This document shows, piece by piece, positions 20,016 to 63,566 of a DNA stretch of 64,000 nucleotides; position 1 is the first letter of the stretch; the number at the start of each line of letters is the position of its first letter. A program made the position numbers and the translations under genes. The notes under the pieces were generated by a model. The model ran no database searches, had not been told where the DNA came from, and saw nothing but the letters and a program-made list of their open reading frames with translations. The DNA comes from a virus: the IMG/VR virus record IMGVR_UViG_3300029892_000001, one strand, 5' to 3'.

Positions 20016-20032
20016 GAACCCTGCCGATAATA
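20016..20032 (+). promoter_or_regulatory. 17-bp motif copy 4
   Basis: GAACCCTGCCGATAATA; core complementary to CGGCAGGG at 20057-20064, which overlaps the RBS. Confidence 0.75.
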
Positions 20033-20069
20033 AAGCCCGTGATCGCCGCTTGTCAGCGGCAGGGAGGAA

Positions 20070-20657
20070 ATGATCATGGGTCACTACATGAAGGTCAGCG
20101 AACTTCCGCCCTCCATCCAGAAGGGGCTGGGGATGGCCGGCTATTGCCGAAAGGACGTCGAGGTGTGCGTCCAAGAGACTTTCTTCACGCGACCGCCCAG
20201 CGGACGAGGCCGTCGCGGGTACGTCGTGGCATGTCGTCTCGACGATACCGAAGAGTGTAAGATCACGTGGGGCTCCTTCGGGGGCTCGAACATGTTCACG
20301 AAGACGATCGATGACTCTGACGAGAGTGTCGAGATTCCGCGCGATATCGCCTTCATCTCTGGGATGGGGAGTGGGGGCACGGGATATCCGGCTTCGGCGA
20401 CCATCTACATCAGTCCGAAGAATATGAATCCCCAGCTCCTTCCGCCGACGACGAACGTCAGCGAAAAGGAAGCAAAGATTCTCGGCGTCTTCAAGGGAAT
20501 CAAGAGCAGCTACAGGAAAGAATACCTGGAGCGACTGGGGGCGACTGCATCGGAAATCGATTCGCTGGTGGCACGAGGTTTCTTGAGCCGCAACAAAGCA
20601 GGCGCGACGAGCATCACCACGGAAGGGCGGAACGCCGCCGAAAAGAGCTACTACTAA
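20070..20657 (+). CDS. hypothetical protein with C-terminal winged-helix-like segment
   Basis: 195 aa; IDSLVARGFL......ITTEG pattern. Confidence 0.7.
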   Translation: MIMGHYMKVSELPPSIQKGLGMAGYCRKDVEVCVQETFFTRPPSGRGRRGYVVACRLDDTEECKITWGSFGGSNMFTKTIDDSDESVEIPRDIAFISGMGSGGTGYPASATIYISPKNMNPQLLPPTTNVSEKEAKILGVFKGIKSSYRKEYLERLGATASEIDSLVARGFLSRNKAGATSITTEGRNAAEKSYY

Positions 20658-21277
20658 TGGCCAGGCATATCCTCTGCGCACTCATTCTCTGTGGGTGCTC
20701 GTTCGACCTGAGCGCCCTCGGTCCTCGGGACGGAGGCCCCCGCGATTCAATGGCCGACGCTCAAATCGATGCTCAAATCCTAGTCGATGCAAGCGACGCT
20801 GAAATCGACGCCACGACAGAAATCGATTCAGGCAGCGATTCGGGTTCGGACGTTGGAACAGACGCAGCGGTGTTCGATTCTGGTTCTGACGCGAGCATGT
20901 TTGCTGACGCCGGGCCGGACTCCGGACCTCCGCTAACCTGCACCGATGTACCAGATATTTCTGGTAGTTACCGAATCACCCATCGACTGATGGGGTGCAC
21001 AGAGACGGATTACGGATACGTTCCGTTGACTCGTCTTAGTGCATGCGAGTATGAATTCGATGATGGCACGGTTACGAATCCCATCTTTGATGGTCCTTGT
21101 GACGTCATCCTCCTGGGGTCGTTGTACACCTATGAATGCGATATCAGGCATGGTGTATGGCGATATCGTTGCACTCTGGTGCCCGTATCTGGTGGTCTAA
21201 ATGTGGACTGCCGATTTGTGTCGGGAACGTCGCCACTCACCACTGATCCGTGTTCATTCTTCGCCCCGTCTGCCTGA
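20657..21277 (+). CDS. myxobacterial-style lipoprotein
   Basis: Lipobox-like ILCGC, Asp/Ala/Gly-rich (DA/DSG/DAG) linker, Cys-rich C-terminal domain. Confidence 0.65.
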   Translation: MARHILCALILCGCSFDLSALGPRDGGPRDSMADAQIDAQILVDASDAEIDATTEIDSGSDSGSDVGTDAAVFDSGSDASMFADAGPDSGPPLTCTDVPDISGSYRITHRLMGCTETDYGYVPLTRLSACEYEFDDGTVTNPIFDGPCDVILLGSLYTYECDIRHGVWRYRCTLVPVSGGLNVDCRFVSGTSPLTTDPCSFFAPSA

Positions 21278-21545
21278 ACATGAGCCACGCATTTCTCAGA
21301 ATGATGGAAGCGTTCCACGCTTTCATGAGCGGACCTCGCTGTCGAATATGCGACAGCCGGATATGCACCAGACCAGGATGCTGTGACGATCACGCTCAAA
21401 TCGATCGAGCGATTGTGACCTGTGCCAACGTCTGTTCGTATGTCTCGTTGGAGGACTGCCTGACGTCCGATTCGTTTCGGGGGATGGACGCAGGACAAGT
21501 ATTCCTCGCGTACAAGGCCGGCGAGTTGCTCGCCAGAAAGCGATA

Positions 21546-21869
21546 GTGATGTCGTACGATAAGAATCTTCGTGAACAGAAGGTAAGGGAGTACCTTCGTC
21601 ACCTGGCTGCGGTGATCGTCGATACCGAATTCAGCGAAGACGAAACCCTGGATCACAGTTCTCCGGAGGCTAAGAAGGCCCGGGAGATCGCAGCGGAAGC
21701 ACTTCTGGGGATGGCCGAGGGGGCATTCGTTCAATCAACACCCCAAGAGCTTGCTCTGAATCTACTTGCCTTTTACCAAAGGCAAGCTTCACTCATGCGA
21801 AATCCCCACGATGATGGAGCAATCGAGGCGCTCACGCGACTGACCCAGCAGATTGGAGCTAAGCGATGA
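21546..21869 (+). CDS. hypothetical protein
   Basis: Coupled to neighbours. Confidence 0.55.
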   Translation: MMSYDKNLREQKVREYLRHLAAVIVDTEFSEDETLDHSSPEAKKAREIAAEALLGMAEGAFVQSTPQELALNLLAFYQRQASLMRNPHDDGAIEALTRLTQQIGAKR

Positions 21870-22396
21870 CGACCATTGATTCGTTCTTCACGCTCAAGAA
21901 CGTTTGGTTGGGTAGGGGAGAGGAAACTCCTCAATTCGAGGCCATCTTGGTAATCAAGGGGCGTGACGTCGCGTACGTCAAGAATCGAGGAACCGGTGGT
22001 TCGAATTCCTATCAGTGGATCGAGCCCTTCTCACATCAGTGGGCTGAGAAGAAACTGCTTCCCGTCGCGGTGAAGGTTGCCTCGGCAAAAGAGCCCGAGT
22101 TCGCCGATCTGTACTCCCGAAGTGCCAGTACCGCTCTGGACTCGTTGGTCTTCGACGCCGTCGAAACTTACCGGTTTACGCGAGGCAAGGACAAGATCCC
22201 GACTTCCGCTCCGCAAGGCCTTAAGAGAGGCGCGACCGTGGAGTTTGGTCGGGAAAACGGGGAAAAGACGAGGGGCCGAGTTCTCAAGATCAACAAGAAG
22301 AGCGTGCTCGTGGAAACATTGGAAGACCGCGGATCGAGGCACGTGAAAGGAGCCAAGTTCCGAGTACATCCTTCTCTAGTCACCGTCGTCTCTTGA
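21866..22396 (+). CDS. hypothetical protein with C-terminal SH3/KOW-like barrel
   Basis: LKRGATVEF...GRVLKINKKSVLV...FRVHPSLV. Confidence 0.6.
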   Translation: MTTIDSFFTLKNVWLGRGEETPQFEAILVIKGRDVAYVKNRGTGGSNSYQWIEPFSHQWAEKKLLPVAVKVASAKEPEFADLYSRSASTALDSLVFDAVETYRFTRGKDKIPTSAPQGLKRGATVEFGRENGEKTRGRVLKINKKSVLVETLEDRGSRHVKGAKFRVHPSLVTVVS

Positions 22397-22651
22397 CTAA
22401 CGGATGACAAGGAATATTGTACCGATTCATACAGAATCGGAGGAACCAGAAAAACTTCTCACCCTGTCCGACGCCCGAGCCATTGCATCGGACAGGGTGA
22501 AAATCGAGAACATCCCGTTCGTTATATGGTGGGTGATGAACCGGGGTTATGTCATCCTGCCCCAAGGGACACGCCCAAAATGGTTCTTCGCTTCTGAGGA
22601 GGAGATTATTCTCCCACCGGGTGACTAAATGGATATGGATTGGCGCAACCC

Positions 22652-22699
22652 TCTTGACGAATTCACTCTCAGGTTTCTTGACGAATTCACTCTCAGGTT
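22652..22699 (+). repeat. perfect 24-bp tandem duplication in ORF 22629-22934
   Basis: TCTTGACGAATTCACTCTCAGGTT x2 (LDEFTLRF x2). Confidence 0.85.
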
Positions 22700-23006
22700 C
22701 CTGATGTCGCAGCTCACGAACGACCGTGAGGCGTACCTCAGGATGGCCCGAGAGGTCAAGAGTCTGGACGAGACCGCCGGAGAGGCGTTCATGATCCGCG
22801 CCGAAGAGTGCGGACGCATCATCCAGCAGCTTCGTCGGCAGCTCGAAAGGGCGGCATCGTTGCCTCCTCCCGAGCCTCCTGCCGCACCGCGTCATCCATT
22901 CGATCCCATGGACCCACCGCGCAAGAAGTGGTGAGCTAACACCAAGCCACCAGAAATCGTCGCAATCCGCGCCCAATAGACTTGACTGCACGTTGCCGTC
23001 GGCCTA

Positions 23007-23309
23007 TTGGTTGGATGTGATGTTGGACTGGTTTTGTCGTATGGAGTATGCGACGGGATTGAGAATCTACTTCAGCATCCAGACTACCATGAGGTCCTAA
23101 TGGGACCGCGAAAGTTCACGGTGTTCCTGACCGAAGTACGGAAAGGTCATAATGGTGGGTGGAGGTGGCACAAGTGGGGCCCCTACATCGGACACCAAGA
23201 GCGTAGCGGATGTGAATACCTCGACGAAGAACCCAACATCGAAAGCGTGTTCCTATTCAACATCGTCGAGCATCGAATTCCGCCCGAGGAACTCGCGACT
23301 ACTCCATAA
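23007..23309 (+). CDS. phage hypothetical protein (WRWHKWGPYIG motif), start uncertain
   Basis: Motif recurrent in phage proteins; no clear RBS. Confidence 0.5.
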   Translation: MVGCDVGLVLSYGVCDGIENLLQHPDYHEVLMGPRKFTVFLTEVRKGHNGGWRWHKWGPYIGHQERSGCEYLDEEPNIESVFLFNIVEHRIPPEELATTP

Positions 23310-23335
23310 ATCCCACGCACTATCGGTGGGGACAT

Positions 23336-23352
23336 GAACCCTGCCGATAATA
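23336..23352 (+). promoter_or_regulatory. 17-bp motif copy 5
   Basis: GAACCCTGCCGATAATA. Confidence 0.75.
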
Positions 23353-23426
23353 GATAGCGTCTGGCGGCAGTTCGCCGCCGAGAGTTCTACAACAACGGTA
23401 CCTGTTCCTAAGGAGATACATACATC

Positions 23427-24152
23427 ATGGCAAAGACCAAGCCTCAGACCCGCACCCACACCCCGAAGCCGATTCCCGCGATGCTGGAGGGTGCGTTCAG
23501 CACCGTCATCGAGAACCGCGTCGCGGAGCTGAACAACCAGCTCGCCCGAGAGGGCCGTCTGACCAACGACCCGCTCGCGGTTTCGCTCCGCAACCTGCGC
23601 ATCGCCCTGAAGGAGCAGGGCTTCAGCTTCGAGCGCATCCCGGTCGGGGCGGCTCCGGTCGCCGCCGCTCCCGCGGCTCCGGCCCCCGCGAAGGCCAGGC
23701 AGGCGCCCGCGAAGACGAAGACCACGCCCCCGGCGGCGGGGCCCACCAAGAAGGTTCGTACGATCAAGGAGGAGCAGATCGAGGCTCTTCAGGTTCCGGG
23801 TTCGGTTTCGGAGACCGCGCCGTACGGAACGGACGCCGATGGTCGGCCGCTGGCGCCCTACGGTGTGAAGCAGGACGGCACGCCGATGAAGCGTCGTGGT
23901 CGTCGGAAGGAGACGCCCGCCGCCGCTCCGGCGAAGGCGGCCCCCTCGAAGCCGGCCGCTCAGGCGGTGGCCTCGGAGGAGACCGAGGAGGAAGAGACCG
24001 AGGAGGCCTCGGAGGACGAGGACGAGGTCGCGGCGGCGGTCGCAGCGCTCACCTCGGACGAGGAGGAGACGGAGGAGGCTTCGGAGGAGAACGGGTCCGA
24101 GGACCTTTCTTCGGAAGACCTCGACGGGCTCCTGGACAGCCTGGACATCTGA
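23427..24152 (+). CDS. low-complexity protein: Ala/Pro/Lys linker, AT-hook-like KRRGRRK, acidic tail
   Basis: Strong TAAGGAG RBS; strongly G/C-ending codons; flanked by motif and hairpin-TTTAA. Confidence 0.8.
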   Translation: MAKTKPQTRTHTPKPIPAMLEGAFSTVIENRVAELNNQLAREGRLTNDPLAVSLRNLRIALKEQGFSFERIPVGAAPVAAAPAAPAPAKARQAPAKTKTTPPAAGPTKKVRTIKEEQIEALQVPGSVSETAPYGTDADGRPLAPYGVKQDGTPMKRRGRRKETPAAAPAKAAPSKPAAQAVASEETEEEETEEASEDEDEVAAAVAALTSDEEETEEASEENGSEDLSSEDLDGLLDSLDI

Positions 24153-24182
24153 TCCTCTTCCTCTAGGACAGGACCGATAAAC

Positions 24183-24230
24183 CGATAAAACGGGCCCCGA
24201 GCAATGTGCTCGGGGCCCGTTTTCGTTTAA
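24183..24230 (+). terminator. hairpin + TTTAA element
   Basis: AAAACGGGCCCCGAGCA/TGCTCGGGGCCCGTTTT then CGTTTAA. Confidence 0.75.
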
Positions 24231-24857
24231 TCACGGGCGCGCTCGATATTATCTCGTCATTATGACAAAGCCCGAATTTGTAGCGTACGCATACTTCTCA
24301 CGTGGCGGACGTTTCAAATTCGTGGCAAATAGTTATGACGACGCAATGGCTCGGGCGCAATTTTGGTACGACCTCTTCATGACAGAGTGGGGCGGCCGTT
24401 CTGTAGAAGGAGAGGAAGTAACTTCGATTTGCGTCGTCAAGCCCTGTGGGACTGAAGTCGAATTGTTGAGGTGAAAGGGGTTCGACGACATTGTGGTGGT
24501 TGTACCCGAGAACCCTCCGAGCGAATCCTACGCGCAGGAAACGAGCTTCAACAATGCTTGCGGTGTCCTCACCGTGAACCTCATCCTACGCCAAATGTCA
24601 GCGATACGGAAGAAGTAGCTATGTCACAAACCACAGTTGCAACGGGTCAGCGATGGCAGGGAAAGCCCATCGGATTCGATCTATGCTCATGGGAGGTGAC
24701 AGCGATCGGCGAAGATGGTACAGTAGCACTCGCTGGACCAGGGCGCGGTCGTCCAGTAATCTATGTCTCCGTGGACGAGTTAGAACAGGATTTTCGTTTG
24801 GTGCCGGCACATTGGGACGAGGATCCGGAAGGTGCGTCAGAAGACTTCTAGTAGAGC

Positions 24858-24874
24858 GAACCCTCCCGATAGTA
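24858..24874 (+). promoter_or_regulatory. 17-bp motif copy 6 (GAACCCTCCCGATAGTA)
   Basis: Variant core CCTCCCG complementary to CGGGAGG (RBS) at 24900-24906. Confidence 0.7.
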
Positions 24875-24912
24875 AGCCGTAGCCGCCTACATCGGGCAGC
24901 GGGAGGTCAATT

Positions 24913-25245
24913 GTGACTGATAAAGATGACAAGAAAGAGCCTTCCGAACACGTGGGAATCATTCTGGGCGAATGTGAAACCCACGAAGGTCAACACGTTC
25001 TCTTCGAACGCGATGGCGCGGTAGCGCTAGGAACCCTCCGCCCCTTCGAGGAAGGGAAGCCTCTCGATCCCAACGTGGAACTGGTGGAAATCCAGCAGGC
25101 CGGTCCTTTCACTCTCCTTCGAAACCACGGCCGTGTGGGAAGGGCCACGTCTCAGGGACCCGCGATGGTCAACAGCAAGGCATTCAAGACCGGCTGGGAC
25201 CAAATCTTCGGTGCGAAGAACACCGCACAGAAGATGGTGAACTGA
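24913..25245 (+). CDS. hypothetical protein
   Basis: GPAMVNSKAFKTGWDQIFG C-terminal motif. Confidence 0.6.
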   Translation: MTDKDDKKEPSEHVGIILGECETHEGQHVLFERDGAVALGTLRPFEEGKPLDPNVELVEIQQAGPFTLLRNHGRVGRATSQGPAMVNSKAFKTGWDQIFGAKNTAQKMVN

Positions 25246-25446
25246 ATGACGGACGAGGAGATTCTTCGGAGTCTATTCAAAGTCCTACAAGAAGCTGCAC
25301 ACCGAGAGATCCCTCTCAAGACGATCGTTGAACACGTGAAGACGAAACAGCGATCTTGGGACGTGTGGCAGAAAAACAAGGTTCATCTGGTGACCTTCTT
25401 CACGATGGAGTGGAAGAGGGCCCGGGAACAAGACCGCAAGGTCGCC

Positions 25447-25486
25447 TGACTGAAGAGCCTGCTAATGCAGGCTTTTCGTCATTTAA
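25447..25486 (+). terminator. hairpin + TTTAA element
   Basis: GAAGAGCCTGC-TAAT-GCAGGCTTTTC...TTTAA. Confidence 0.7.
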
Positions 25487-25814
25487 GCCGGAGGCTCTGT
25501 CATGTCGCAGGAGATCTATCTGGTAGTCGACGGCGATGAACGTCGAGTTTCACCGTGAACTCTCTCGTCGAGAAAAGCGTTGAGAACTATGACGTCGCGG
25601 CGCAAGTCAAAAGAGAAGTACGACAAGTATCAAGCAGACCGTGCACAACTGGAAAAGGCTGTAGCTGACGCCGAAAAGAAGCTCTCCGCTGCCAAGAAAC
25701 GCCTTGCGCGTTTCGACTCCGAGCGTCTAAATCCCCATCTTGCTTGCGGCTGGTGTAGTGCATGTCTGGTGGGTGAAGAACGACTGTGCGACGGGGCGCC
25801 GGTCTAGGTAGACC

Positions 25815-25831
25815 GAACCCTGCCGATACTA
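25815..25831 (+). promoter_or_regulatory. 17-bp motif copy 7
   Basis: GAACCCTGCCGATACTA. Confidence 0.75.
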
Positions 25832-25873
25832 GCCAGGGCAGTCGACCACCGACCGCAGAAAGGAAAATGAATA

Positions 25874-27172
25874 ATGGACCGTCGAGACAGGATGGCAATG
25901 TATGGGTCCGACCTCAAGTCGCTTCCCGAGGTCGAGATCGACCTGGATGCCATGACCGCGACTTTCTACGTCGAGCCCGATCTTCCCGCGGCTCCTCTGC
26001 GGGAGAAGTCGGAGTTGGAGCTTCGAGGGGAGCAACTCGACGAGAGTATCTCGAAGTTCATCGATGAGGTGATCGATCGTCTCGTCGATAGCAAGAAGAT
26101 CGAGCCCAAGTACATGGGAAGCTGCTACGGGTGGAGCATCCATTTCCCCGAGCGACCCGAGGGATACATGGACTTCCTTCCGGAGTCCCGGCGTACCTGG
26201 TTTCAGGGCACGCTTCGAGAGATGTTGGTGGACGCCCTTCGTACGAAGAGCTTCTACAACTTCTTCAAGGGATACCTCTCAGTGGATCTTGCGAGCCGCT
26301 GGCAAAGCCAATGGGACACCGAAAGGCCCAAGGCTCCGCATACGATCGTTCTGTCTCTGCAATTCGGTCCCCGCGATTGGATTCAGCTAGATAAGGACGA
26401 CTCGCAAAATCGTACTCGTCCGAGCATTCGCCTGTGGTTCAAGAAGAACGGACGTAAGGTTTTCTCGCTTCGAGAGATCCAGCAAGACAACCTGCCATAC
26501 TACATGACGCAGGGCTCCGGACCAAGGATTCCGTTCCACTTCGGAATCGGTGCCATGGAATGGATCATTCGTGACCAGGAGGACGAGCAAGGCCTGAACT
26601 TCTTCCAGAAGTGCAAGCTCCGTGCGTCGAAGGGCTGGGACATGTTCTCGACTGGAAGCATTTCGTTCGGTAGCCTTGGCCGGGCGCTGAATAGGATGGT
26701 CCACGGAGAGACCACGAAGGAGCAGTACGAGGAGACGCTCCGGTCCTGGCTCGGTCTCCAGGACTACGACATGGAGCAGTGGCCTAACGCTTCGATGGAA
26801 CTCGTTCAGAAGGCGCGAGAGGAACTCGGAGATTGGGTTCTTCGATTCCTGGAACCCGGCATGGTCGAGCACGTGCTGCACCTCAAGTGGGAGGTCTGCG
26901 GGACCTGCGACGGAAAGGGCGAGCACGTGAACCCCAGCATCGACGCTCACGGAATCACGGCGGACGAATTCAGCGAGGACCCTGATTTCGCTGAGGAGTA
27001 CTTCCGTGGATCGTACAACGTCAACTGCTACGAGTGTGGGGGCCGTACGACGTCACTCGTGATCAATCGCGAGCGAACCAGCGAGGTTGCCCTAAAGGCG
27101 GCTGACGAGATCATCAACGACCACTACGACTACATCCGTGAGTCCGAGGCCGAACGAAGGATGGGCGCATGA
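25874..27172 (+). CDS. hypothetical protein with C-terminal Zn-finger module
   Basis: 432 aa; WEVCGTCDGKG..VNPSID.HG and CYECGG. Confidence 0.75.
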   Translation: MDRRDRMAMYGSDLKSLPEVEIDLDAMTATFYVEPDLPAAPLREKSELELRGEQLDESISKFIDEVIDRLVDSKKIEPKYMGSCYGWSIHFPERPEGYMDFLPESRRTWFQGTLREMLVDALRTKSFYNFFKGYLSVDLASRWQSQWDTERPKAPHTIVLSLQFGPRDWIQLDKDDSQNRTRPSIRLWFKKNGRKVFSLREIQQDNLPYYMTQGSGPRIPFHFGIGAMEWIIRDQEDEQGLNFFQKCKLRASKGWDMFSTGSISFGSLGRALNRMVHGETTKEQYEETLRSWLGLQDYDMEQWPNASMELVQKAREELGDWVLRFLEPGMVEHVLHLKWEVCGTCDGKGEHVNPSIDAHGITADEFSEDPDFAEEYFRGSYNVNCYECGGRTTSLVINRERTSEVALKAADEIINDHYDYIRESEAERRMGA

Positions 27173-27513
27173 CCGAAGCTGACCGTGAAGACGCCGAAGA
27201 AGAAAAGTGTGTGGTCTTCAATAAGTTCACTGGTGCATACCTGATCGTCTTCAATCGGCCAGTCCCGCAGGGCAGCGAACCATCAGAGATGCATATCGAC
27301 ACTCTGGACCCTAGTGAGGCAACGGTGTTCCCCTCACATGAGAAGGCCCAGGAGTACGTCGATTTCGAGAACAAGGAAGAACCGGGAGAGCCGTGGATGA
27401 TTGGCATTCCTGGTGTTCTCGATCCCGAGAGCGTTCGAGACTTCGTCGCCAGGTCAACAACTTGCAGCCCAAGAGATCATAAATCTTCGGGCCCGTCTTC
27501 GTTGAAGGGATGA
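27169..27513 (+). CDS. hypothetical protein
   Basis: ATGA overlap. Confidence 0.5.
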   Translation: MTEADREDAEEEKCVVFNKFTGAYLIVFNRPVPQGSEPSEMHIDTLDPSEATVFPSHEKAQEYVDFENKEEPGEPWMIGIPGVLDPESVRDFVARSTTCSPRDHKSSGPSSLKG

Positions 27514-27898
27514 AAATGAACGACCGAAAGCGTCTCCTTCTGATGAAGGATGTATACACCGCAGTCCTGGTCAGCACCGAGACTTTCCGCGGTAGAGTCG
27601 GAGCGGATCTCGCCTACTTACTTGGTGCAATTGCCTCCGTAGGCGATGACAAAAAGAAGTGTGCCTTCTCACCTCGGTCTCGAATCGTCAAGATTCTGAA
27701 GGCACACTTCTCGGAGGACCACACGGTTTGGTCCTTCATCGACCTCACGTCCTAGTATAAAGCACGCTCCTGCGTGCAATGAGTGCGGTTTTCTCTGGCA
27801 CCAGCCACACCCACAACATAGCGCTTCCGCGCCCTCAGATTGCTCTTTTAGGGAAAATCGCTCTCGTTGCACGCAGGAGCCGAAAATAAGGAAGGAGA

Positions 27899-28354
27899 AT
27901 GATGATGTCCAATGGTAAGAACGACGAGGTTTCAAAGTTCGAGGTTGACTGCGGCCCACCGGACGGGTTCAAGGTTCAGATCGACGTTTCTGCCCGAGAT
28001 GTTGCCAGTCTGATCTGCTCTGGCTTCGAGGGCGGAGTCAGTTACTGGTGTCGCATCATGGACTACCGAGAGCCGAAGGTTGTCCGCCCCGTCATTGACG
28101 AAGACGAGGTATTCAAGCACAACGATTACCCGCTTCTGGATGGCGGTGCGGTGATCTGTCGCGTCTTCGACGAGGGCACGGACAAGAAGTACGCTCCTCT
28201 CGTACTCGACCGCGATGCGGTACAGCGAGGACTGACTCTCATGGCAGAGAAGTACCCGCGCCATTGGGGAGATTTCCTCAGCACGAACTACGACGCGTGT
28301 ACCGGAGATGTTTTCCTTCAGCTCTGCCTTCTGGGCGAGGTCGTGTACGGATGA
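27899..28354 (+). CDS. conserved phage hypothetical protein
   Basis: EGGVSYW...DACTGDVFLQLCLLGEVVYG motif. Confidence 0.75.
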   Translation: MMMSNGKNDEVSKFEVDCGPPDGFKVQIDVSARDVASLICSGFEGGVSYWCRIMDYREPKVVRPVIDEDEVFKHNDYPLLDGGAVICRVFDEGTDKKYAPLVLDRDAVQRGLTLMAEKYPRHWGDFLSTNYDACTGDVFLQLCLLGEVVYG

Positions 28355-28852
28355 CCATCGACGAAATGATCGCTGAGCTGAAGCGAGTTAGGGAAGAATC
28401 CCCTCTGAAAGGGGACACCGTGGTCGTCGTGTGCCTAGAAGGAAGTGGGATTTCCGACAGCCAACCTACTTCGGTACTACTCGACACCGATCCCCACATG
28501 AAGGATTGGGACAACAGGTACGTTCCGAATGGAGTCGCTCAGGTCTTTGTGCCTGAAAGCAACCACGAGGTGAGGGAGTAATGATCAAGAAGCTGGAGTC
28601 TTTCATCTGGGCTCTTCCGATCTCGTTCACAGTCCGTGGCATTCTGGCGGACAGTGAAGCCCGTGAGGCATTCAAGATCGGAGTCATCGACGGCCTCGTC
28701 GCAGAGCGCGAACAGGATGAGAGTTATATCGGGATGACGTGGGACGACAACCAGAACGCGAACGAGTGCTACGACGCCGGAGCCAATTTCGGCCAACGCA
28801 TCGGTCGTGTCCTGATGGCGGCCACGGATTTTCCCTTCCGTGAGGTCGTGAG

Positions 28853-29152
28853 ATGAGTACTCCGGATATCCTGGAGAGGGTCCGTTCGGCAATCGACGAA
28901 GTCTTCGGTCGATACATTTCGGCGGACCCGGCTCGTCGTCGCAAGATCATCGAGGAAGCAACCTTTCTCGGTGAAGACGATCCAGGGGAATGGGCGCCGA
29001 ACGCCGATGTCGTGATTCACTGTGAGTCGGGAATCCCGAGTGGCTCATGGAACCCCAAGGAACTGGAAATGTGGTTCGAAGTGAGCGACAAGCTCAAGAC
29101 CCATTTCTGTGAACACGTCAACTCGGCCGTCATCGGAGTCTATCCGGGTTAA
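28853..29152 (+). CDS. hypothetical protein
   Basis: Coupled ORF, 99 aa. Confidence 0.55.
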   Translation: MSTPDILERVRSAIDEVFGRYISADPARRRKIIEEATFLGEDDPGEWAPNADVVIHCESGIPSGSWNPKELEMWFEVSDKLKTHFCEHVNSAVIGVYPG

Positions 29153-29418
29153 TGATATGGCAAAGATCGTTGAAGGTCCGAAGCCGAAACGCGTAACCTG
29201 CCGGGACTGTGAAGCAGTCATAGAATACCTTCCAGAAGAGGTCGAACGTTACTCCGGGAGGGATTACAGCGGAGGTCCTGACGGATACGAACGGGTCAAG
29301 TGCCCTCGTACCGGCTGCCCCGGTTACGGCTACGTTCGGTCCTGGTAATCAGAGTTCGGGGGCTAACTACCTCCAACCAATTTCCCCACCTGTCAATTCG
29401 AAAAGGAACCTGTCAATC

Positions 29419-29709
29419 ATGAGTATCCCTGCACGTCGAATCCATGAGTTCGTCCCTCCGTCGGCTCCTCCTTCGGCCACGGCGCAGCCGGTAGGGGAGG
29501 CACCGAAGTTCGTCGGTCATCTTCTGGAGATGCCTCTCACGAACGGAGAGAGCGCGATGATCGATCCCGACGAGGTCATCAGTGTCTCGGCCCATCGTCA
29601 GGAAGCAAACGTGACTGTCCTGCGACAGCGAGACGACAAGTTCACCTACTTCATCAATCGACCTTATGGTCTGGTGAAGCAGTGGATCGAACAGGCGCTA
29701 GACGATTGA
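29419..29709 (+). CDS. hypothetical protein
   Basis: RBS, biased codons. Confidence 0.55.
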   Translation: MSIPARRIHEFVPPSAPPSATAQPVGEAPKFVGHLLEMPLTNGESAMIDPDEVISVSAHRQEANVTVLRQRDDKFTYFINRPYGLVKQWIEQALDD

Positions 29710-29920
29710 TGACACCCGGCTCTGTGAAGTGGGCGTTGCTCAACGCGAAGGATCAGGCCAGTCGAGGCCGAAAGGATTCCGCTCTCCGTTGGCTACGTGA
29801 CGCGAAGAACCGAGCAATTCTCTCCGGAGAAGAGATTCGCCTCTCTCCTGAGGAGATGGCAGATCTCGTCGATACGGTCGACGCCCTCATTGGGAATCCC
29901 CCGCTCGACTAGTAAAGGAC

Positions 29921-29960
29921 GTCAACCCTGCCGATACTAAACGGTGTCGGCAGGGTTGAC
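29921..29960 (+). promoter_or_regulatory. 17-bp motif copy 8 embedded in 17-bp inverted repeat
   Basis: GTCAACCCTGCCGATAC-TAAACG-GTGTCGGCAGGGTTGAC (16/17 Watson-Crick, one G-T). Confidence 0.8.
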
Positions 29961-30010
29961 CCTGCTAGTCCCAACAACCCGTGAAGCACAAGAAAGTGTG
30001 GAGGTAAATC

Positions 30011-30487
30011 ATGTCGAATCGTGCACGTTTCGAGACCACGGACGGAGAGCACCTGCGCATCAGCCGTGGGACGCTCATGATCTTCAAGGGCGAGACCGGA
30101 GAGTACATCGAGTTTTCGCTGTCCGGTGAGATGAGCTACGATCCCAAGAAGAAGAAGCTCGTCGTCCCGATCTACGTGAAGTCGAGCGAGAAGCTCATCA
30201 CCACCACGTTCGAGTACAACATCACGAAGGGCCCCGAGCAGTTCCGGAAGGAAATGCTGGAGACGTTCATCGCGACCGAGAAGAGCCGTCTCGTGAACAA
30301 GGTCAAGTCCCTTCCCGAGACGGTGGACGCGGATCCTTCGGGAACCGGTGGTTCACCGAACCCGGAGTTCGAGAAGGCGAGGAGCGCGCTCAGCGACTTC
30401 TGCGTCCGATACGGACTCGACTTCTACGAGGAGATGGGCTGGACGCGGCCGAAGTCCGAGAAGTCCAAGAAGAAGGCGAAGGCCTGA
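30011..30487 (+). CDS. hypothetical protein, basic C-terminus
   Basis: GGAGG RBS, strongly G/C-ending codons. Confidence 0.75.
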   Translation: MSNRARFETTDGEHLRISRGTLMIFKGETGEYIEFSLSGEMSYDPKKKKLVVPIYVKSSEKLITTTFEYNITKGPEQFRKEMLETFIATEKSRLVNKVKSLPETVDADPSGTGGSPNPEFEKARSALSDFCVRYGLDFYEEMGWTRPKSEKSKKKAKA

Positions 30488-30715
30488 TTCCAATGGAGAG
30501 GCCCGAGGAGGAAGAGGACTGGACCGGTCTGTACGACTGGCACACGGCGACGTGCGCTGAGGTCCCGCACGTTGCTGTCTTCCGACATGAAGGCGGATTG
30601 GACGAGACGCGCATCGCCGATTTCTATATCATCGATGGAGATTGGCAGACTGCGGAAAATCTGGCCATCGAACTCGTGGATCTCTTGAACGAGAGAGCAA
30701 AAAGCTCGAAGGACT

Positions 30716-30755
30716 GAAAGAAAGGGCCGGAACACCGGCCCTTTCTTTCGTTTAA
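30716..30755 (+). terminator. hairpin + TTTAA element
   Basis: GAAAGAAAGGGCCGG-AACA-CCGGCCCTTTCTTTC-G-TTTAA. Confidence 0.75.
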
Positions 30756-30981
30756 CGTCCAAGCTCAGAGGGACATATGCCCACGTGGTACGAAGTAGAT
30801 GAGTATACCGAAAGCGATGAACTGGATACTCACGACAAGGAAATGTTTGATACTCTAGAAGAGGCACTAGAGTATAAGAACCAGCAGCCCAAAGAGCCGC
30901 CCTTGTTTGTGTACGAGTGTGTAGACGCGGATCGCTACTCGTACCGCCGTATCGTAGAGGAGACCTAGCCGTCCAGGCGCC

Positions 30982-30996
30982 CAAAGCCTTTTAACA
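30982..30996 (+). repeat. CAAAGCCTTTTAACA 15-mer copy
   Basis: Identical to 6892 and 47118. Confidence 0.7.
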
Positions 30997-31014
30997 CGCG
31001 AGCCTGGTCGCGGT

Positions 31015-31031
31015 GAACCCTGGCGATAATA
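31015..31031 (+). promoter_or_regulatory. 17-bp motif copy 9 (GAACCCTGGCGATAATA)
   Basis: Core CTGGCG can pair with CGCCGG(AGG) at 31055-31063. Confidence 0.75.
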
Positions 31032-31072
31032 ACCCCGGCTGGGAAATATCCCGCCGCCGGAGGAAAATAGTC

Positions 31073-31519: not shown

Positions 31520-31521
31520 GA

Positions 31522-32019: not shown

Positions 32020-32463
32020 TGGAACAGAGCACGAGGGCATACGTCCACGTCCATGACGACGGGAGCGCTACGCTCCACATGCCACTAGGAGGAAAGTGGC
32101 CTGCACACTCGTGCTAGAACGGGGATGCCTGTGATCGGCAACTACCAGCACATGGAGGAAATGTCCTGTGCAGCCCTGAGGGTGCTTCGACAAGTTCAGG
32201 GCAATTACGCAGACCTCCTCGAAAAGGCAGCCACCAGTGAGCTATAATCAATGAGAAACCCTCAACGAGCAAATCTGTTCCTAGACGCGGCCAACGCAAT
32301 AGAGAATGGATCATTTCACTCATTCATGTTGAGGGCCAAGCATGCCTCGCCAGATGACCTGGAAAGTCTTATTCAGGCGGTGAAGGCCCAACGAAATCCC
32401 AGCTCAACCATTTCATCTCTTCGAGAGCTGGCGAGGTGTTATTCATAATCAAGTGGAGTCACT

Positions 32464-33319: not shown

Positions 33320-33336
33320 GAACCCTGCGGATAATA
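33320..33336 (+). promoter_or_regulatory. 17-bp motif copy 10 (GAACCCTGCGGATAATA)
   Basis: Consensus match upstream of ORF 33369. Confidence 0.75.
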
Positions 33337-36128: not shown

Positions 36129-36145
36129 GAACCCTGGCGATAATA
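36129..36145 (+). promoter_or_regulatory. 17-bp motif copy 11 (GAACCCTGGCGATAATA)
   Basis: Consensus match at start of a structured leader. Confidence 0.75.
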
Positions 36146-39015: not shown

Positions 39016-39032
39016 GAACCCTGCTGATAGTA
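39016..39032 (+). promoter_or_regulatory. 17-bp motif copy 12 (GAACCCTGCTGATAGTA)
   Basis: Consensus; AGGAGG RBS follows. Confidence 0.75.
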
Positions 39033-44768: not shown

Positions 44769-44785
44769 GAACCCAGCAGATAATA
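44769..44785 (+). promoter_or_regulatory. 17-bp motif copy 13 (GAACCCAGCAGATAATA)
   Basis: Consensus; AGGAGG RBS follows. Confidence 0.7.
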
Positions 44786-47220: not shown

Positions 47221-47499
47221 ATGATGTTACGTAAGTTCCTTGTCATTTTGTTCCTTTTGCTGGCCGCTTGTGCACCACCAACAGATTTCAGCCGGCAAGG
47301 GTGTATCGATCGCTGCACTCAATGTGGAATTGACGTCTGTGATCAAATATGCACAAGCCTTGACGAGGGCTTTCAAAGCACCAACTGCCACCAACCTTCT
47401 GAACAGGTGTGGGAGTGTGCGCTAGTTGCCGAGTGTGAATTCCCCACTACATGCTCATACGAAATCACTGAGTTTCTGGGCTGTCAGCCTGCCTTCTAG
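47221..47499 (+). CDS. Cys-rich lipoprotein
   Basis: Signal peptide with LAAC lipobox; ~10 Cys in mature part. Confidence 0.65.
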   Translation: MMLRKFLVILFLLLAACAPPTDFSRQGCIDRCTQCGIDVCDQICTSLDEGFQSTNCHQPSEQVWECALVAECEFPTTCSYEITEFLGCQPAF

Positions 47500-47507
47500 C
47501 GAGTAGC

Positions 47508-47524
47508 GAACCCAGCCGATAGTA
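47508..47524 (+). promoter_or_regulatory. 17-bp motif copy 14 (GAACCCAGCCGATAGTA)
   Basis: Core CCAGCCG complementary to CGGCTGG at 47536-47542. Confidence 0.75.
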
Positions 47525-48198
47525 AATAGTAGCAACGGCTGGCGCCGGGAGGGCAGAATGTTGAACCTCGACAAGGACCGTGAACGTATCCTCAACGGCT
47601 GGATGCGTACGTATCTCGACATGGAATACATCCTGACGGAGGAGAGTTTCAAGACGCTTCTCCGACGGGAGGGGCTCAGGCTGTCTCGGATCTACCGAGC
47701 CATGCTCAGGCCGGTGGAACTCGGCGAGACTTCGCAGAAGGTCCTCGATATCTACGAGGAGCAGTTCGCGAATGTCATGACGGTCCACGGCGGATTCTTC
47801 ATCGAGTGCTGAAGCCTCCGCACCCGCTTCCATCGAGAGGGATGAATAATGAGAAAGCACAAGCTGTTCTTCACGACACCGGCTGCGGCTGGCTACGGTG
47901 CGCGAATCTACCTGTCGAGAGAAGCGACGGGAGAAAGCGAACGAGCGCACGAGACCCTCACATTCGTGTCTCGTTGGCAGGGATCCGACAAGACGTTCAA
48001 GGATTCGCTGGGCACGACATTCCTGGGCTACGAAATGGCCCAGAAGATGGCGGATGCCATGACGGATCTGCTGGAGCGAAAGGGGTTCCAGCAGGAAGTC
48101 CCCTTCCAGGAGTGATGCAACGATCCTTGGGGCAATAGTATCATCTACACTCACATCTACGGGCCTCGACGCCATCGGGATCCGTGGGAGGACTAATC

Positions 48199-49436: not shown

Positions 49437-49453
49437 GAACCCTGCTGATAGTA
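49437..49453 (+). promoter_or_regulatory. 17-bp motif copy 15 (GAACCCTGCTGATAGTA)
   Basis: Core CTGCTG complementary to CAGCAG at 49468-49473. Confidence 0.75.
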
Positions 49454-51160: not shown

Positions 51161-51177
51161 GAACCCAGACGATAGTA
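51161..51177 (+). promoter_or_regulatory. 17-bp motif copy 16 (GAACCCAGACGATAGTA)
   Basis: Consensus match. Confidence 0.7.
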
Positions 51178-53019: not shown

Positions 53020-53036
53020 GAACCCCGCCGATAGTA
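53020..53036 (+). promoter_or_regulatory. 17-bp motif copy 17 (GAACCCCGCCGATAGTA)
   Basis: Consensus match. Confidence 0.7.
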
Positions 53037-53079: not shown

Positions 53080-53409
53080 ATGCTGAATCTCTCCCACATG
53101 TCGAGCGGCAGCGAAATCCCGGAGCGCTACGAGACGGACGAGGCGAGCGAGGACGCGCCGCAACTCATCACCCGCACGCTCTCCAGCAAGGAGCGCATCA
53201 TCGAGTGCCTTCGGGATGCCGGCGGCGACTCGCTCTCGGCGGCGGAGATCGCCGAGGAGACAGGGCTCCCCAAGAAGAAGATCCAGAAGTTCCTGGAGAA
53301 GGTGAGCAACGTCGAGCTGAACAGCCGCGAGGTGTTCGAGGACGAGAACGCTCCCGGTTCGTACTTCCTGACGGAGCCGCTGTTCGAGAAGCTGGCGGTC
53401 GGGTTCTAG
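53080..53409 (+). CDS. winged helix-turn-helix protein
   Basis: RIIECL......LSAAEIAEETGLPKKKIQKFL. Confidence 0.7.
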   Translation: MLNLSHMSSGSEIPERYETDEASEDAPQLITRTLSSKERIIECLRDAGGDSLSAAEIAEETGLPKKKIQKFLEKVSNVELNSREVFEDENAPGSYFLTEPLFEKLAVGF

Positions 53410-54416: not shown

Positions 54417-54773
54417 ATGAATAGAGTGAATCTCGATGTTGCTCCGATCAATCTTGCAGATTTTGTGAGCTACCTTCCTCGTACTTGTGCCTTCAAGGGG
54501 ACCTCCCTGATTCAGGTGCAAGACTTTGGGACTGTTCTTATCGGGGAACTTTCCGACGAAGAGGCCGCTATCTCTATTCCACAGAAGGGAACGTTTCTTT
54601 TCACGGCCCCTCCTGACTGGAGAATGCCACAGCTCTTGAAGTCGCTGTCGGTTTTCAAGAGCACCACCGAGGCCAGAAAGAATGGATGGGACAAAGACAT
54701 CCCATCAGGATGCTCTTCTATCCTGGTGAGGATCAGAAAGGTCCTCGGTGAGGTCTGGATCCACAAGGCGTGA
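54417..54773 (+). CDS. hypothetical protein, possible S4-like RNA-binding segment
   Basis: LLKSLSVFKSTTEARK resembles the S4 motif of TyrRS. Confidence 0.5.
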   Translation: MNRVNLDVAPINLADFVSYLPRTCAFKGTSLIQVQDFGTVLIGELSDEEAAISIPQKGTFLFTAPPDWRMPQLLKSLSVFKSTTEARKNGWDKDIPSGCSSILVRIRKVLGEVWIHKA

Positions 54774-54788
54774 ACCCGGCTGATAATA
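54772..54788 (+). promoter_or_regulatory. 17-bp motif copy 18 (GAACCCGGCTGATAATA)
   Basis: Consensus; GAGGAGG RBS follows. Confidence 0.7.
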
Positions 54789-57362: not shown

Positions 57363-57379
57363 GGACCCTGCCGATACTA
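57363..57379 (+). promoter_or_regulatory. 17-bp motif copy 19 (GGACCCTGCCGATACTA)
   Basis: One mismatch to consensus. Confidence 0.7.
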
Positions 57380-58444: not shown

Positions 58445-58495
58445 GACGAAGGGTCCCAATGGGGCCCTTTCGTCGTTTGGACCCTGCCGATATTA
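58445..58495 (+). promoter_or_regulatory. hairpin followed by 17-bp motif copy 20 (58479-58495)
   Basis: GACGAAGGGTCCC/GGGGCCCTTTCGTC, then GGACCCTGCCGATATTA; TGCCGAT pairs with ATCGGCA at 58496. Confidence 0.7.
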
Positions 58496-59631
58496 ATCGG
58501 CAAGCGAGGTGAGCAAATGGGAATGATCATCTATCACAAAATCACCGCCGAGATCACGGGACCGGATGGCCGAGAGTGGCTTGTCAGCATCGAGCCCCCA
58601 GCAAAGGAACAAAAGCCTGGCGAGGTCTGGGTCAAATGGGATGCCACCATCCGGAGACTCTTCACGAGGGAGGAGCTGGAGCAGCTCGGTGGTGTCGAGC
58701 CGGAGCCGATCACCTACCAGGTTCCGTCCGACGAGGGGATGTTCAAGGCGCTGAATCTGGCGCTCGATCTCGTTCCGAGGACGTGAGGAGGGGAGATATG
58801 TACTGCGATCAGTGCGGCAACAAAATGGTGTTGCTTCTGCTCACCGTAGTGTGCGACACTTGCGAGGGCCGTCAATCCAACGCACCAGAATTGGCCCGCG
58901 GCTATATCGTCTGGCGTTCGCGTCCTCCCGGGACGGCCGAATACGTCTTCCGAACACGTCATGACGCGGAGCGGTGGAGAGCCGCCGCTGGCCTGGATCG
59001 CTATCCGATTCGTACCGTCTTCTCGCGAGTCCCTTTCAAGTGGACACTCAGCACTGGAAGTGTGCGGGACATTGAATGGGCGAATCGCATGTTCGAAGTT
59101 TTTCCTAGTGAGGATCACGAGCCAGGTCCGAACCGCGTGTTTCTAGACTGAAAGAGGTGAATAATGGACCCGCAAGCAGCACTCGACTGCGCTGAAAGCG
59201 CCATCGAAGACGGCGATCTCGAAGAGGCAGAGGAGTTCCTCGCGAACTACAGAGAGTGGCGTCGCAAGGGAGGTTTCGCTCCCGAAGGCGGCGACTTGCG
59301 CTGCGAGCGTCTCTCGATGCGCATGGCAGCCAAGGCGTCGGAGCTTCTCGACGAGCCAGTCTGATGGCCGATGTCTCGCCGTACGATCTCGTTCGGGTCG
59401 AAGCCATTAAGAAGTTCATGGCGGACAATCCGAACGAGGCACACTCCGTTCTCAACGCGGTCATCTTCTATCTCGAACGGGGAGATGAGGACGCAGCTCG
59501 ATACAAAATCGAGTTGGACTCGGACAAGTTCAGCTATCGAAAAGAAGTTCTCCACTTCCTCGACACGCTGGATTTGATTCGTGAGGAATACAAGGCTCGC
59601 CTAGTTCGCTGGGATCTCTGGTGAAAGGGAA

Positions 59632-60704: not shown

Positions 60705-60721
60705 GAACCCCGACGATAGTA
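60705..60721 (+). promoter_or_regulatory. 17-bp motif copy 21 (GAACCCCGACGATAGTA)
   Basis: Consensus match. Confidence 0.7.
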
Positions 60722-62002: not shown

Positions 62003-62019
62003 GAACCCTGGGGATATTA
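62003..62019 (+). promoter_or_regulatory. 17-bp motif copy 22 (GAACCCTGGGGATATTA)
   Basis: Consensus match. Confidence 0.7.
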
Positions 62020-62055
62020 GACAGCAGGCAATGACAATCCAATCGTGAGGAATCA

Positions 62056-62310
62056 ATGCGACGTCCAGAGCTTTCTGAGTCCGCTGCCCTTGCCGAGGGC
62101 CTGCACGAATATTCTCTGGGGCCGATTCTTCCCTACGAGGATTTCTTCGTCGACCACGACGAGGAGAAGAATTGGTACCTTTACCAGGAGTCGTTGACGG
62201 ACAGCTACGACTACACGGATTGGGATTCCGAGTGGGAGTTGGATCGTCAAGACGAATTGGATGGGTACGACGACTACGGGTACGACTACGAACTCGACTA
62301 CGACTACTAA
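62056..62310 (+). CDS. Asp/Glu/Tyr-rich 84-aa protein
   Basis: GAGG RBS; DY-repeat C-terminus. Confidence 0.6.
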   Translation: MRRPELSESAALAEGLHEYSLGPILPYEDFFVDHDEEKNWYLYQESLTDSYDYTDWDSEWELDRQDELDGYDDYGYDYELDYDY

Positions 62311-62329
62311 TCAACCAACAGGGAAAATC

Positions 62330-62812
62330 ATGGTCAGCCAAAAGGAAATCGACATCGCGAAGGGCCGCACCACCGAAGAGGAAATCCTCCATCAGGAGGA
62401 GATCCAGCGGGCAGCACAGTTGGCGCTCGACGCCCAGAGTGCCTGCAATCTGAGGGCGGTTCTCCGCAGCTACTCGAAGGTCATGGATCTCCTGTGGAAG
62501 GAGGCCCACCGCGAAGACATCATGGACGTCTCGAAGCCGCAGCGGGGATCGGATTGGGTGCATCTGCATCCGATTTCCGTGCTGTTCGCTACGCAGGTCG
62601 GACACCTGACACGAGTCGCCGTGCTCGCCGACGACGCCTGTCACTGGAACGAGTGCGAAGCAATCTGCCAGCGCCTCGCGGCCGGAGAGTGGGTGGATTC
62701 CTCGGAGTTCCCCTACGAGAAGGAGTGGCAGGAAGGCCGGGCGAAGGCCCGGGCGAAGACTCTCGTGATGGAATCCGGAGGAGTCAAGTTCGAGATCGAG
62801 ACAGACGACTGA
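62330..62812 (+). CDS. hypothetical protein
   Basis: Q.ACNL..V...HPISVLF motif. Confidence 0.65.
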   Translation: MVSQKEIDIAKGRTTEEEILHQEEIQRAAQLALDAQSACNLRAVLRSYSKVMDLLWKEAHREDIMDVSKPQRGSDWVHLHPISVLFATQVGHLTRVAVLADDACHWNECEAICQRLAAGEWVDSSEFPYEKEWQEGRAKARAKTLVMESGGVKFEIETDD

Positions 62813-62844
62813 GAGAGGGCCCGTAAGGGCCCTTTCTCGTTTAA
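62811..62844 (+). terminator. hairpin + TTTAA element
   Basis: GAGAGAGGGCCC-GTAA-GGGCCCTTTCTC-G-TTTAA. Confidence 0.75.
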
Positions 62845-63518
62845 GGGGCCAAGCAAATATGCGCTATAGCGTGCGACACAAAACGGATGATGCGGAGATC
62901 GATCACATCCAGTTTGAAGTAGGCGAACTTGCTTCGCAGCAAGTGGTCCTAATTGGGGCTGGGATTCTCTACATTCGAGGGCTCGGCGAGGGAGATTGGT
63001 GCGTTTATGACGACACCAATACGCCCCTTCCTCAGGGAGACCACGTTTCAGAAACCTATCGGGACGACGATCTTGTCCTCTCGGAGAGTGAGCCTACCGA
63101 GTTCTTCGACATAGACTTCTAAGGGAGCACAGACTTGTCCAGCAACGAAATTGATCTGAGCAGCAAGCAACAAATATTCAACGCAATAGCTGTTGCATGG
63201 CTCAGCGGACGGTTTGAACATCCAAGGGAGATCCTTAAAGGAGAGCCACCGAAGACGGCGGTCAGGGCTCGCTGGCTGTATGATGTGATATCCGATCGCT
63301 TCGAGATGGAAGGGCCGTATCCGCTACGCATATTGCGTTCGACGGCTCACACCTGCCACTGTGACATCCAAAACGACCACTACAACCTTTGGATAAACGG
63401 TCGTCGACACCAGGAAGGATACTGGATAGAAGACCGCTGGTCGCCTGAGGCTGAAACTCCGGAGGCCCTTAGAACCCATTTAGTGTCCGGGCCCGAAGAC
63501 TAATACTAATAAAGGGCT

Positions 63519-63535
63519 GAACCCGGCTGATAGTA
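63519..63535 (+). promoter_or_regulatory. 17-bp motif copy 23 (GAACCCGGCTGATAGTA)
   Basis: Core CCCGGCTG complementary to CAGCCGGG(AGG) at 63549-63556, overlapping the RBS. Confidence 0.75.
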
Positions 63536-63566
63536 GTTGAGACAACCCCAGCCGGGAGGAATAATC

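Follow-up and report, generated by a model that had tools for sequence, protein, structure and literature searches.

The closest described system is that of phage T4, in which genes e, soc, 49 and I-TevI have leaders that sequester the ribosome-binding site (RBS), the 5' strand of the helix being encoded by the promoter region, and in which gene e is repressed 100-fold, as set out in the excerpted text of PMC3014915; such repression equals about 2.8 kcal/mol. Here we analysed a short motif that recurs ahead of genes in a DNA stretch of 64,000 nt from the IMG/VR virus record IMGVR_UViG_3300029892_000001 (the whole stretch is called the window below), together with its relatives in other sequences. 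The reading that we favour, with a probability of about 0.5, is that the motif is an early/middle promoter in a family of large phages and that at about one fifth of its copies the motif or its flanks, as folding predicts, would pair with the gene's own ribosome-binding region on read-through RNA, curbing translation until the promoter fires. Two other phage devices bear comparison: the virion RNA polymerase of N4 uses hairpin promoters, and RNase III, which needs about two helical turns of duplex, processes stems in the early-region RNA of T7 and SPO1.

As in T4, the motif lies immediately upstream of the RBS, in the region that would encode the 5' strand of the helix, given the putative start site. 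Under the favoured reading, transcription would start about 7 letters after the motif (offset 23). The RNA made from the promoter would lack the motif and would often open with a small hairpin of its own and an open Shine-Dalgarno sequence (SD), whereas RNA arriving from upstream would keep an extra 5' strand that could close the SD or the start codon, as in T4 gene e. According to the excerpts of PMC3014915, T4 uses the device at few genes, sets a late promoter against early read-through, has a measured repression and shows similar leaders in close relatives; here, in contrast, many early/middle promoters carry weak, predicted and poorly conserved masks. Because the region fails the conservation test given below and the upstream promoters seen carry the same motif, leaving no separate earlier class of RNA in evidence, we did not file the region as a member of the T4 e/soc type.

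A profile scan of the window returned 23 strong copies of the 17-letter motif Y-GAACCC(T)G(C)(C)GATA-N-TA-R, all 23 on the plus strand (Table 1); where a gene start was called, the motif lies 16-94 letters ahead of it. The best score on the minus strand was 8.9, and two weak copies (43053 and 36779) were excluded. Two further sets were used. Groups A-D, the closer relatives, comprise 78 de-duplicated copies on metagenome contigs (four groups of 62, 12, 2 and 2), taken from contigs with at least two copies and from single-copy contigs of those or like-numbered assemblies, other single matches being dropped as likely chance; several of the contigs are homologous to the window with 66-76% DNA identity. 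As the scan pattern required the consensus core, the set is skewed towards it, and 48 of its 78 copies are identical. The other set is G006, a complete 424-kb relative reached via giant protein homology, in which 75 of 78 copies passed the score and flank filter, with 46 distinct cores.

The 78 copies in G006 follow a diverged motif, AAA(G/C)(T/C)CC(G)N(C)GAT(A/G)NTA, and all lie on one strand. Twenty-two of them fall within the first 20 kb. The 120-kb block from 251.2 to 371.3 kb, which carries baseplate, tail, terminase, portal, protease and major head genes with some recombination genes, contains none of them and four weaker matches. Given this crowding and the gap in the virion-gene block, we consider the motif a likely early/middle promoter in a family of large, uncultured phages. 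It stands ahead of tRNA genes at 5 of 78 copies in A-D and at 5 of 78 in G006. A purine occupies offset 23 in 20/23 copies of the window, 68/78 of A-D and 61/75 of G006, against about 0.64 nearby; an open ATG begins exactly there in 4/78 copies of A-D and 3/75 of G006, whose genes would thus be nearly leaderless, and three SDs of the window begin at this offset. No conserved block was found upstream of the motif.

The heptamer GCCGATA occurs in 10/23 copies of the window and 62/77 of A-D but in 5/75 of G006, and CGATA in 15, 64 and 38 copies, respectively. The -10 element of sigma-28 is given as (-15)GCCGATAA(-8) in the excerpts of PMC12784957, and E. coli sigma-28 sites appear in those of PMC4183435. 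The core GCCGATA(A), at about -16 to -9 of the putative start, resembles this FliA/WhiG element. However, the -35 TAAA, about 15 letters upstream, is at its expected place in 0 of 175 motif copies and nearby in 3 of 175, and the motif has invariant letters in the would-be spacer (GAACCC, or AAAGTCC in G006) as well as an invariant TA 3' of the core. We concluded that the motif resembles a sigma-28 promoter at -10, yet is not one.

Some further observations concern the motif units. Promoter-leader modules recur almost letter for letter before unrelated genes (7442/8990, 14247/17334/19116 and 2233/2677 in G006; also L167 and L153), which suggests that promoter cassettes have been duplicated or recombined. 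The 93.5-kb sequence G007 has one motif copy only (L337-L341), whose leader is closely similar to that of the copy in L117, apparently an orthologous small-RNA-like unit. On L142, the copy at reverse-strand index 4062 precedes a tRNA with a CUA anticodon (Pyl according to ARAGORN), a possible amber suppressor; TAG ends 38 of 221 open reading frames (ORFs) of the relatives and 15 of 112 of the window, and coding density gave no clear sign of TAG recoding.

For the masking test, the energy needed to open the region from SD to start codon was computed once with the 48 letters that precede the inferred start site of the same gene and once with the blocks of other copies, using only copies with a called SD and start. 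The values were 7.38 (own) and 6.23 (swapped) in the window (z 2.79, n=20), 7.25 and 6.41 in G006 (z 2.44, n=38) and 5.56 and 5.25 in A-D (z 1.05, n=45); the two independent sets, G006 and A-D, combine to p=0.007. When each copy kept its own six post-motif letters, z was 2.33 (n=18), 2.17 (42/45) and 1.11 (42/45) for the window, G006 and A-D (independent p=0.010). The same test at motif-free genes gave z -0.04 in the window (24/45) and -3.16 in G006 (60/158), where the genes' own upstream sequence tends to keep the initiation site open. Swapping the motif alone gave z 1.49, 2.58 and -0.62 in the window, G006 and A-D, and in G006 (n=45) z 2.71, or 2.91 within regions. Shuffling the upstream 25 letters alone gave z 1.95, 0.19 and 1.24 in the three sets. 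The upstream flank tested alone against the leader was marginal (A-D: p 0.018 and 0.26; window: p 0.07-0.08), and one control cell gave a false signal that was stronger.

The predicted masks are weak on average, the mean strength being +0.3 to +1.2 kcal/mol. An excess of at least 2 kcal was found in 23/108 copies and a deficit of at least 2 in 8/108. T4-like strength, defined as at least 2.8 kcal/mol more closed on the long RNA and at least 2 kcal above swapped controls, was predicted for 4/18 copies of the window, 9/45 of G006 and 8/45 of A-D, that is, 21/108. The largest whole-block excesses in the window were at 31015, 8683, 47508, 20016, 60705 and 49437. At 47508 the SD opening was predicted as 1.0 on the short RNA, 10.2 on the long RNA and 6.1 with non-cognate blocks, and at 8683 as 0.5, 7.9 and 2.9, respectively. 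The masking strand was the flank or the six letters after the motif as often as the core. The excess in the window was larger on the sense strand (2.86 vs 1.17, p=0.024), as RNA pairing predicts; in G006 the strands were alike (0.73 vs 0.61), and the pooled p was 0.058. Pairing across the start replicated more strongly than SD closure (independent z 3.97), and the leader's own hairpin showed a modest trend (mean z -0.65 to -0.9; z of -2 or lower in 3/23, 20/78 and 9/75 copies).

A preliminary description of the window had claimed that the variable core of the motif co-varies with a complementary strand in its own leader, often overlapping the RBS. All seven partner words that it quoted are at their coordinates, and six of the seven pairs are exact Watson-Crick complements, the pair at 31015 needing a G-U pair. 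In the window the 23 copies do pair better with their own 50-letter leaders than with others, whether judged by the longest helix (5.48 vs 4.83, p=0.002-0.003), by duplex energy (p=0.002) or by whole-fold energy (p=0.012). The signal holds with any one copy left out (p<=0.016), and none of 77 control windows reached the z of the leader (maximum 2.57 vs 3.06). From the permutation, the leave-one-out test and the control windows we concluded that the pairing signal is real in the window. It is driven by a minority of copies: helices of at least 6 bp occur in only 9/23, the 16 copies outside the seven give z 0.9-1.2 (removing the top cases biases this downward), and one partner, CGGGAGG, is non-specific, being present in 5 of 23 leaders. 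The overlap with the RBS had been overstated: of the seven partners, that of 24858 lies over most of the SD, those of 20016, 31015 and 63519 share 2-3 nt with it, and those of 47508, 49437 and 58479 lie clear of it. The core-partner test in G006 (75 copies) gave z +2.14 for the helix and +1.39 for the energy. There was no direct-repeat co-variation in core-leader pairs (z -0.2), and no pairing was found when the search was restricted to the 12 letters after the motif.

As to what reads the promoter, host RNA polymerase with a phage sigma factor is most likely. No RNA polymerase beta subunit was found in G006, the control being positive in 14/14, and the single-subunit polymerase family PF00940 had no match in G006, G001 or G007, nor in any control genome. 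The favoured candidate for the reader is a sigma-like module in a giant protein at the end of the head operon. G001, whose motif is identical to that of the window, encodes such a protein of 2637 aa, 53% identical over aa 330-1000 to a 2813-aa protein. Its segment 725-860 (18 homologues) matches bacterial sigma regions 3.2-4 (hhalign 83.6%, E 8e-6), and its segment 385-520 (18 homologues) aligns weakly with sigma region 2 (E 0.02); the remaining eight segments, like every reversed control, gave E 0.03 or worse, and an Atlas lead for the module named Sigma70_r2 at 0.94 with low recognition. The sigma-2 segment is 62% identical between G001 and the 2813-aa protein, which share the motif if the latter protein belongs to the genome of the window, and 40-42% identical to that of G006, whose motif has diverged. 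This parallel fits a giant-protein module that reads the motif, although it consists of three points and is not a test.

G006 also has a stand-alone RpoD-like sigma (L330:12532-13785, minus strand), between ribonucleotide reductase and SSB/UvsX/SbcD genes and 68% identical to the homologue taken as its window-side counterpart; its homologues are many (42-73% identity), some on contigs of 265-404 kb, and its profile found no match in the giant proteins. In having this sigma and no beta-subunit match, G006 resembles the group 2 jumbo phages, which combine the RNA polymerase of the host with sigma factors of their own, as they are presented in the excerpts of PMC7824862. The difference is that here a second sigma-like module, in the giant head-operon protein, is the candidate reader of early promoters. 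The sequence TTATCTA stands shortly upstream of several virion-zone starts in G006, G001 and G007 (e.g. G006 287077-, 318671-, 328315-, 331093+ and 338757+) and is a possible late promoter for the stand-alone sigma; G006 has 21 TTATCTA and 3 TTATTTA against a rough composition estimate of about 24, hence enrichment was not seen.

Several results weigh against the favoured reading. Opening of the SD alone was not significant (p=0.06 in the window, 0.15 in G006, 0.44 in A-D). Masking agreed in one of four orthologous promoter-gene pairs, 57363 (+2.0) with L229 (+2.8), and disagreed for 14186 (-2.7) and L200 (+5.1), 25815 (-1.1) and L156 (+3.0), and 47508 (+5.0) and L232 (-1.4), these relatives being distant (27-77% protein identity). 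The absence of a terminator-like hairpin upstream did not go with stronger masking (0.72 vs 0.58, p=0.70), and the three sets diverged in this. The upstream promoters appear to be of the same class, so the temporal gain of T4 is not evident. Control cells can also give a signal (z 3.57 in 1 of 24 window cells, and z 2.87 for cross-junction pairing at motif-free genes of the window), and the p-values are generous because many tests were run and the copies within a genome are partly paralogous. The core-partner test was reversed in A-D (78 copies; helix z -2.22, energy z -0.80) and null in the pooled independent sets (z -0.06 and 0.42). At 20016 the core-leader pairing probability was 0.02 with 40 upstream letters, the helix forming if folding begins at the motif; it is lost with the upstream letters, since the partner serves at the same time as the 3' arm of a hairpin within the leader. 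In G006 an ATG at 8 letters (5 copies) is commoner than at 6 (3 copies), which makes the start site uncertain by 1-2 letters. The sigma module of the giant protein was missed by Pfam, NCBIfam and PDB sequence searches. All the folding results are predictions made from an inferred start.

Since the masks are weak, their strands interchangeable and the masking gained or lost between relatives, we regard it as a sporadic layer and not as a built-in property of the promoter. A sporadic, labile mask of the T4 gene e type at a few genes is plausible from these folding predictions. The region-wide switch of the preliminary description is not borne out, given the 21/108 copies at T4-like strength, the agreement of one orthologous pair in four and the missing link to terminators.

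A serious rival, possible if somewhat doubtful, is that the motif is a promoter and the pairing a by-product of a C-rich promoter beside G-rich SDs and GC-rich 5' hairpins ending in GGC or CGC plus AG, with the upstream sequence under no pressure to leave the ribosome site open. Such an origin would account for the null core-partner test in the pooled sets, the repeated CGGGAGG, the poor agreement of orthologues, the lack of a link to upstream terminators and the control cells that reach z 2.9-3.6, as well as for leader hairpins that are kept with different sequence and no motif pairing (25815 and L156). However, swapping takes account of shared composition, and relaxed selection predicts z of about 0 rather than +2.8, +2.4 and +1.05; moreover, the leader beats 77 of 77 control windows and the 28-bp stem at 29907 is not chance. 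Inverted without direct co-variation (direct z -0.2) and the lability of the pairing would also be explained by template switching in replication, which might perfect chance inverted repeats round an often-melted promoter, tolerant core letters copying their neighbours without RNA selection; such a process would affect both strands equally. The copies at 63519 and 49437 do pair at least as well on the antisense strand, and the excess in G006 is alike on both strands, but the larger sense-strand excess in the window and the reliance of the top stems on G-U pairs make this quite improbable. The strong form proposed earlier, a variable core that is a built-in anti-RBS throughout the region, each gene being translated only from its own promoter, is largely refuted in silico and very improbable. 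The window permutation (p of about 0.002) and the motif-only swap in G006 (z 2.6-2.9) speak for it; against them stand T4-like strength in 4/18 window copies and 21/108 overall, the motif-only swap in the window and A-D (z 1.49 and -0.62), the 48/78 A-D copies that share one identical motif over unrelated leaders, and the tRNA genes that the motif drives as well.

The strongest structure of the window, absent from the earlier list of pairs, is the stem at 29907-29970 (-46 kcal/mol, z -9.4, 0/200 shuffles as stable), which recalls the long, irregular intergenic stems in the early-gene arrays of T7 and SPO1, with the difference that it encloses a promoter, would form only on read-through RNA and has few counterparts. 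Long promoter-enclosing stems might thus be RNase III-type processing sites, the cut leaving an end near the promoter-made one or setting off decay, with SD masking incidental. The 29907-29970 stem, a long duplex of a kind that few copies have, misses the RBS; long stems enclose copies of the relatives too, including L111 ahead of two tRNA-Gln genes and L110 15867; 47508 and its orthologue L232 are each enclosed by a long stem, the two stems differing in sequence and that of the window alone covering the SD; and cross-start pairing replicates above SD closure (independent z 3.97). We nevertheless think this rather unlikely, for most helices (5-10 bp) are too short and cross-junction pairing is raised at motif-free genes of the window too, though not at those of G006 (z 0.56). 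The alternative offered earlier, that a polymerase or recombinase recognises the element as a hairpin of single-stranded DNA, to which a cruciform may be added, would resemble the N4 promoters in the inverted repeat present at some copies, and in each of the three sets the register centred on ANTA ranked first or second among those scanned (35-38% of pairs, against an average of 27-28%). Hairpin geometry is not fixed here, however: a contiguous apex helix of at least 5 bp occurs in 1/23, 13/78 and 4/75 copies of the window, A-D and G006, partner distance varies widely, within-genome co-variation is missing in the window and A-D (z -1.1 and 0.7; G006 1.9), and the copies are strictly co-oriented with the genes. 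A fixed DNA-hairpin promoter was rejected on the absence of the apex helix from most copies, and recognition of this kind is scarcely credible.

An extension of the favoured reading, which we put forward as unlikely, is that the family reads dozens of early promoters via a particle-borne sigma and that selection tunes tolerant promoter and flank letters into anti-RBS strands, which would leave host-takeover genes untranslated on RNA not started by the phage sigma. Such a fail-safe against leaky expression would be distributed and evolve fast. The pattern of divergence agrees with this: the window and G001 have GAACCCTG and G006 has AAAGTCCG, the giant sigma-2 segment is about 40% identical between them and the stand-alone sigma 68%. 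T4 already provides the masking device itself. Two things are added here. One is a compact promoter, sigma-28-like at -10 and lacking a -35, which is shared with variation by a family of uncultured phages of roughly 400 kb and so offers the proposed particle-borne sigma module a definite candidate target. The other is three sequence sets in which promoter-proximal sequence tends to close its own initiation region and the upstream sequence of promoter-less genes does not. If true, gene-by-gene insulation of translation would be more widespread in phages than the few cases of T4 indicate; the predicted effect is small.

Table 1. Motif copies and associated predicted structures in the window
Position	Strand	Feature	Basis
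260..276	+	Motif copy, core CCCTGCTG	Profile scan
8683..8699	+	Motif copy; letters 8702-8706 just 3' of it predicted to pair with SD AGAAAGG (8725-8731) on the long RNA; leader with own hairpin	Profile scan, folding
14186..14202	+	Motif copy; SD begins at putative start site 14209; masking not predicted	Profile scan, folding
20016..20032	+	Motif copy, consensus core; partner CGGCAGGG at 20057-20064, also 3' arm of the leader's own hairpin and beginning of the SD	Folding
23336..23352	+	Motif copy; leader hairpin distant from SD; masking not predicted	Profile scan, folding
24858..24874	+	Motif copy, unique core CCCTCCCG; partner 24900-24906 over most of the SD	Folding
25815..25831	+	Motif copy; leader with own hairpin, followed by AGAAAGGA; on short and long RNA alike the initiation region is predicted to be open	Folding
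29907..29970	+	28-bp stem around motif copy 29923-29939; SD at 30000-30005 not reached; candidate RNase III-type substrate on read-through RNA	Folding
31015..31031	+	Motif copy; G-U pair required for quoted partner 31055-31060; masking predicted when the whole upstream block is included	Folding
33320..33336	+	Motif copy	Profile scan
36129..36145	+	Motif copy without close SD/start call	Profile scan
39016..39032	+	Motif copy, short leader	Profile scan
44769..44785	+	Motif copy; SD begins at putative start site 44792	Profile scan
47489..47556	+	Best predicted lock: upstream flank 47489-47497 pairs SD region 47548-47556; core of motif 47508-47524 pairs 47536-47542; gene start 47558	Folding
49437..49453	+	Motif copy; partner CAGCAG 49468-49473 ends just 5' of SD (49475)	Partner check
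51161..51177	+	Motif copy	Profile scan
53020..53036	+	Motif copy; own leader hairpin; downstream gene 53080-53409 with weak helix-turn-helix match	Profile scan, folding
54772..54788	+	Motif copy; SD begins at putative start site 54795	Profile scan
57363..57379	+	Motif copy; moderate masking predicted, likewise in orthologue L229	Folding
58479..58502	+	Motif copy and 7-bp apex hairpin; partner before or at putative start site, off the SD; terminator-like hairpin 58451-58467 directly upstream	Folding
60705..60721	+	Motif copy; upstream terminator tail predicted to pair with SD region	Folding
62003..62019	+	Motif copy	Profile scan
63519..63535	+	Motif copy, core CCCGGCTG; partner of 8 bp at 63549-63556, overlapping the SD by 2 nt	Folding

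A family of terminator-like hairpins sharing a TCGTTTAA-type tail was observed in the window, together with a second repeat, CAAAGCCTTTTAACA, that resembles a terminator end (24191, 44532, 48623, 58451, 60666 and 62809; 6892, 30982 and 47118). In a Pfam scan, 22 of the 23 genes behind motif copies had no family over the cut-off, and a toxic function is thus not indicated. The small motif-led gene at 53080-53409 has, besides its weak helix-turn-helix match, a weak Sigma70_r3 match (E 9e-5, below the cut-off) and possibly encodes a transcription regulator. A sigma-70 scan of 14001-33900 was at chance level (10 vs 7.6), and no tRNA or Rfam family was found in the window.

Searches for the pattern elsewhere gave 76 matches in bacterial and archaeal genomes, which were single or belonged to a repeated element in one archaeal genome; the 18 that we looked at were, in our judgement, unrelated. 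In that Methanotrichaceae genome, the pattern forms part of a longer repeat in seven near-identical stretches (L241, L242, L244, L248, L262, L271 and L275). This repeat is probably a multi-copy element with no relation to the phage promoter. An early viral pattern scan covering 43 of 64 parts returned mostly single matches, at chance level. No paper on the motif or the phage family was found in the open-licence literature.

No DNA match to GenBank phages was found for 19001-26900; a 715-aa protein of the window had distant matches only (at most 48%), and no viral relatives were found for a 432-aa one. According to a scan of 96 ORFs, the window consists mostly of short plus-strand genes of no known function, among which are phage-type RNA-repair genes (tRNA nucleotidyltransferase, RNA ligase, phosphatase and kinase-like ATPase). 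The relatives L136, L142, L175, L190 and L206 carry a large RNA-repair set (RtcB, Ro60/TROVE, several RNA ligases, Thg1 and RlaP) together with NAD genes.

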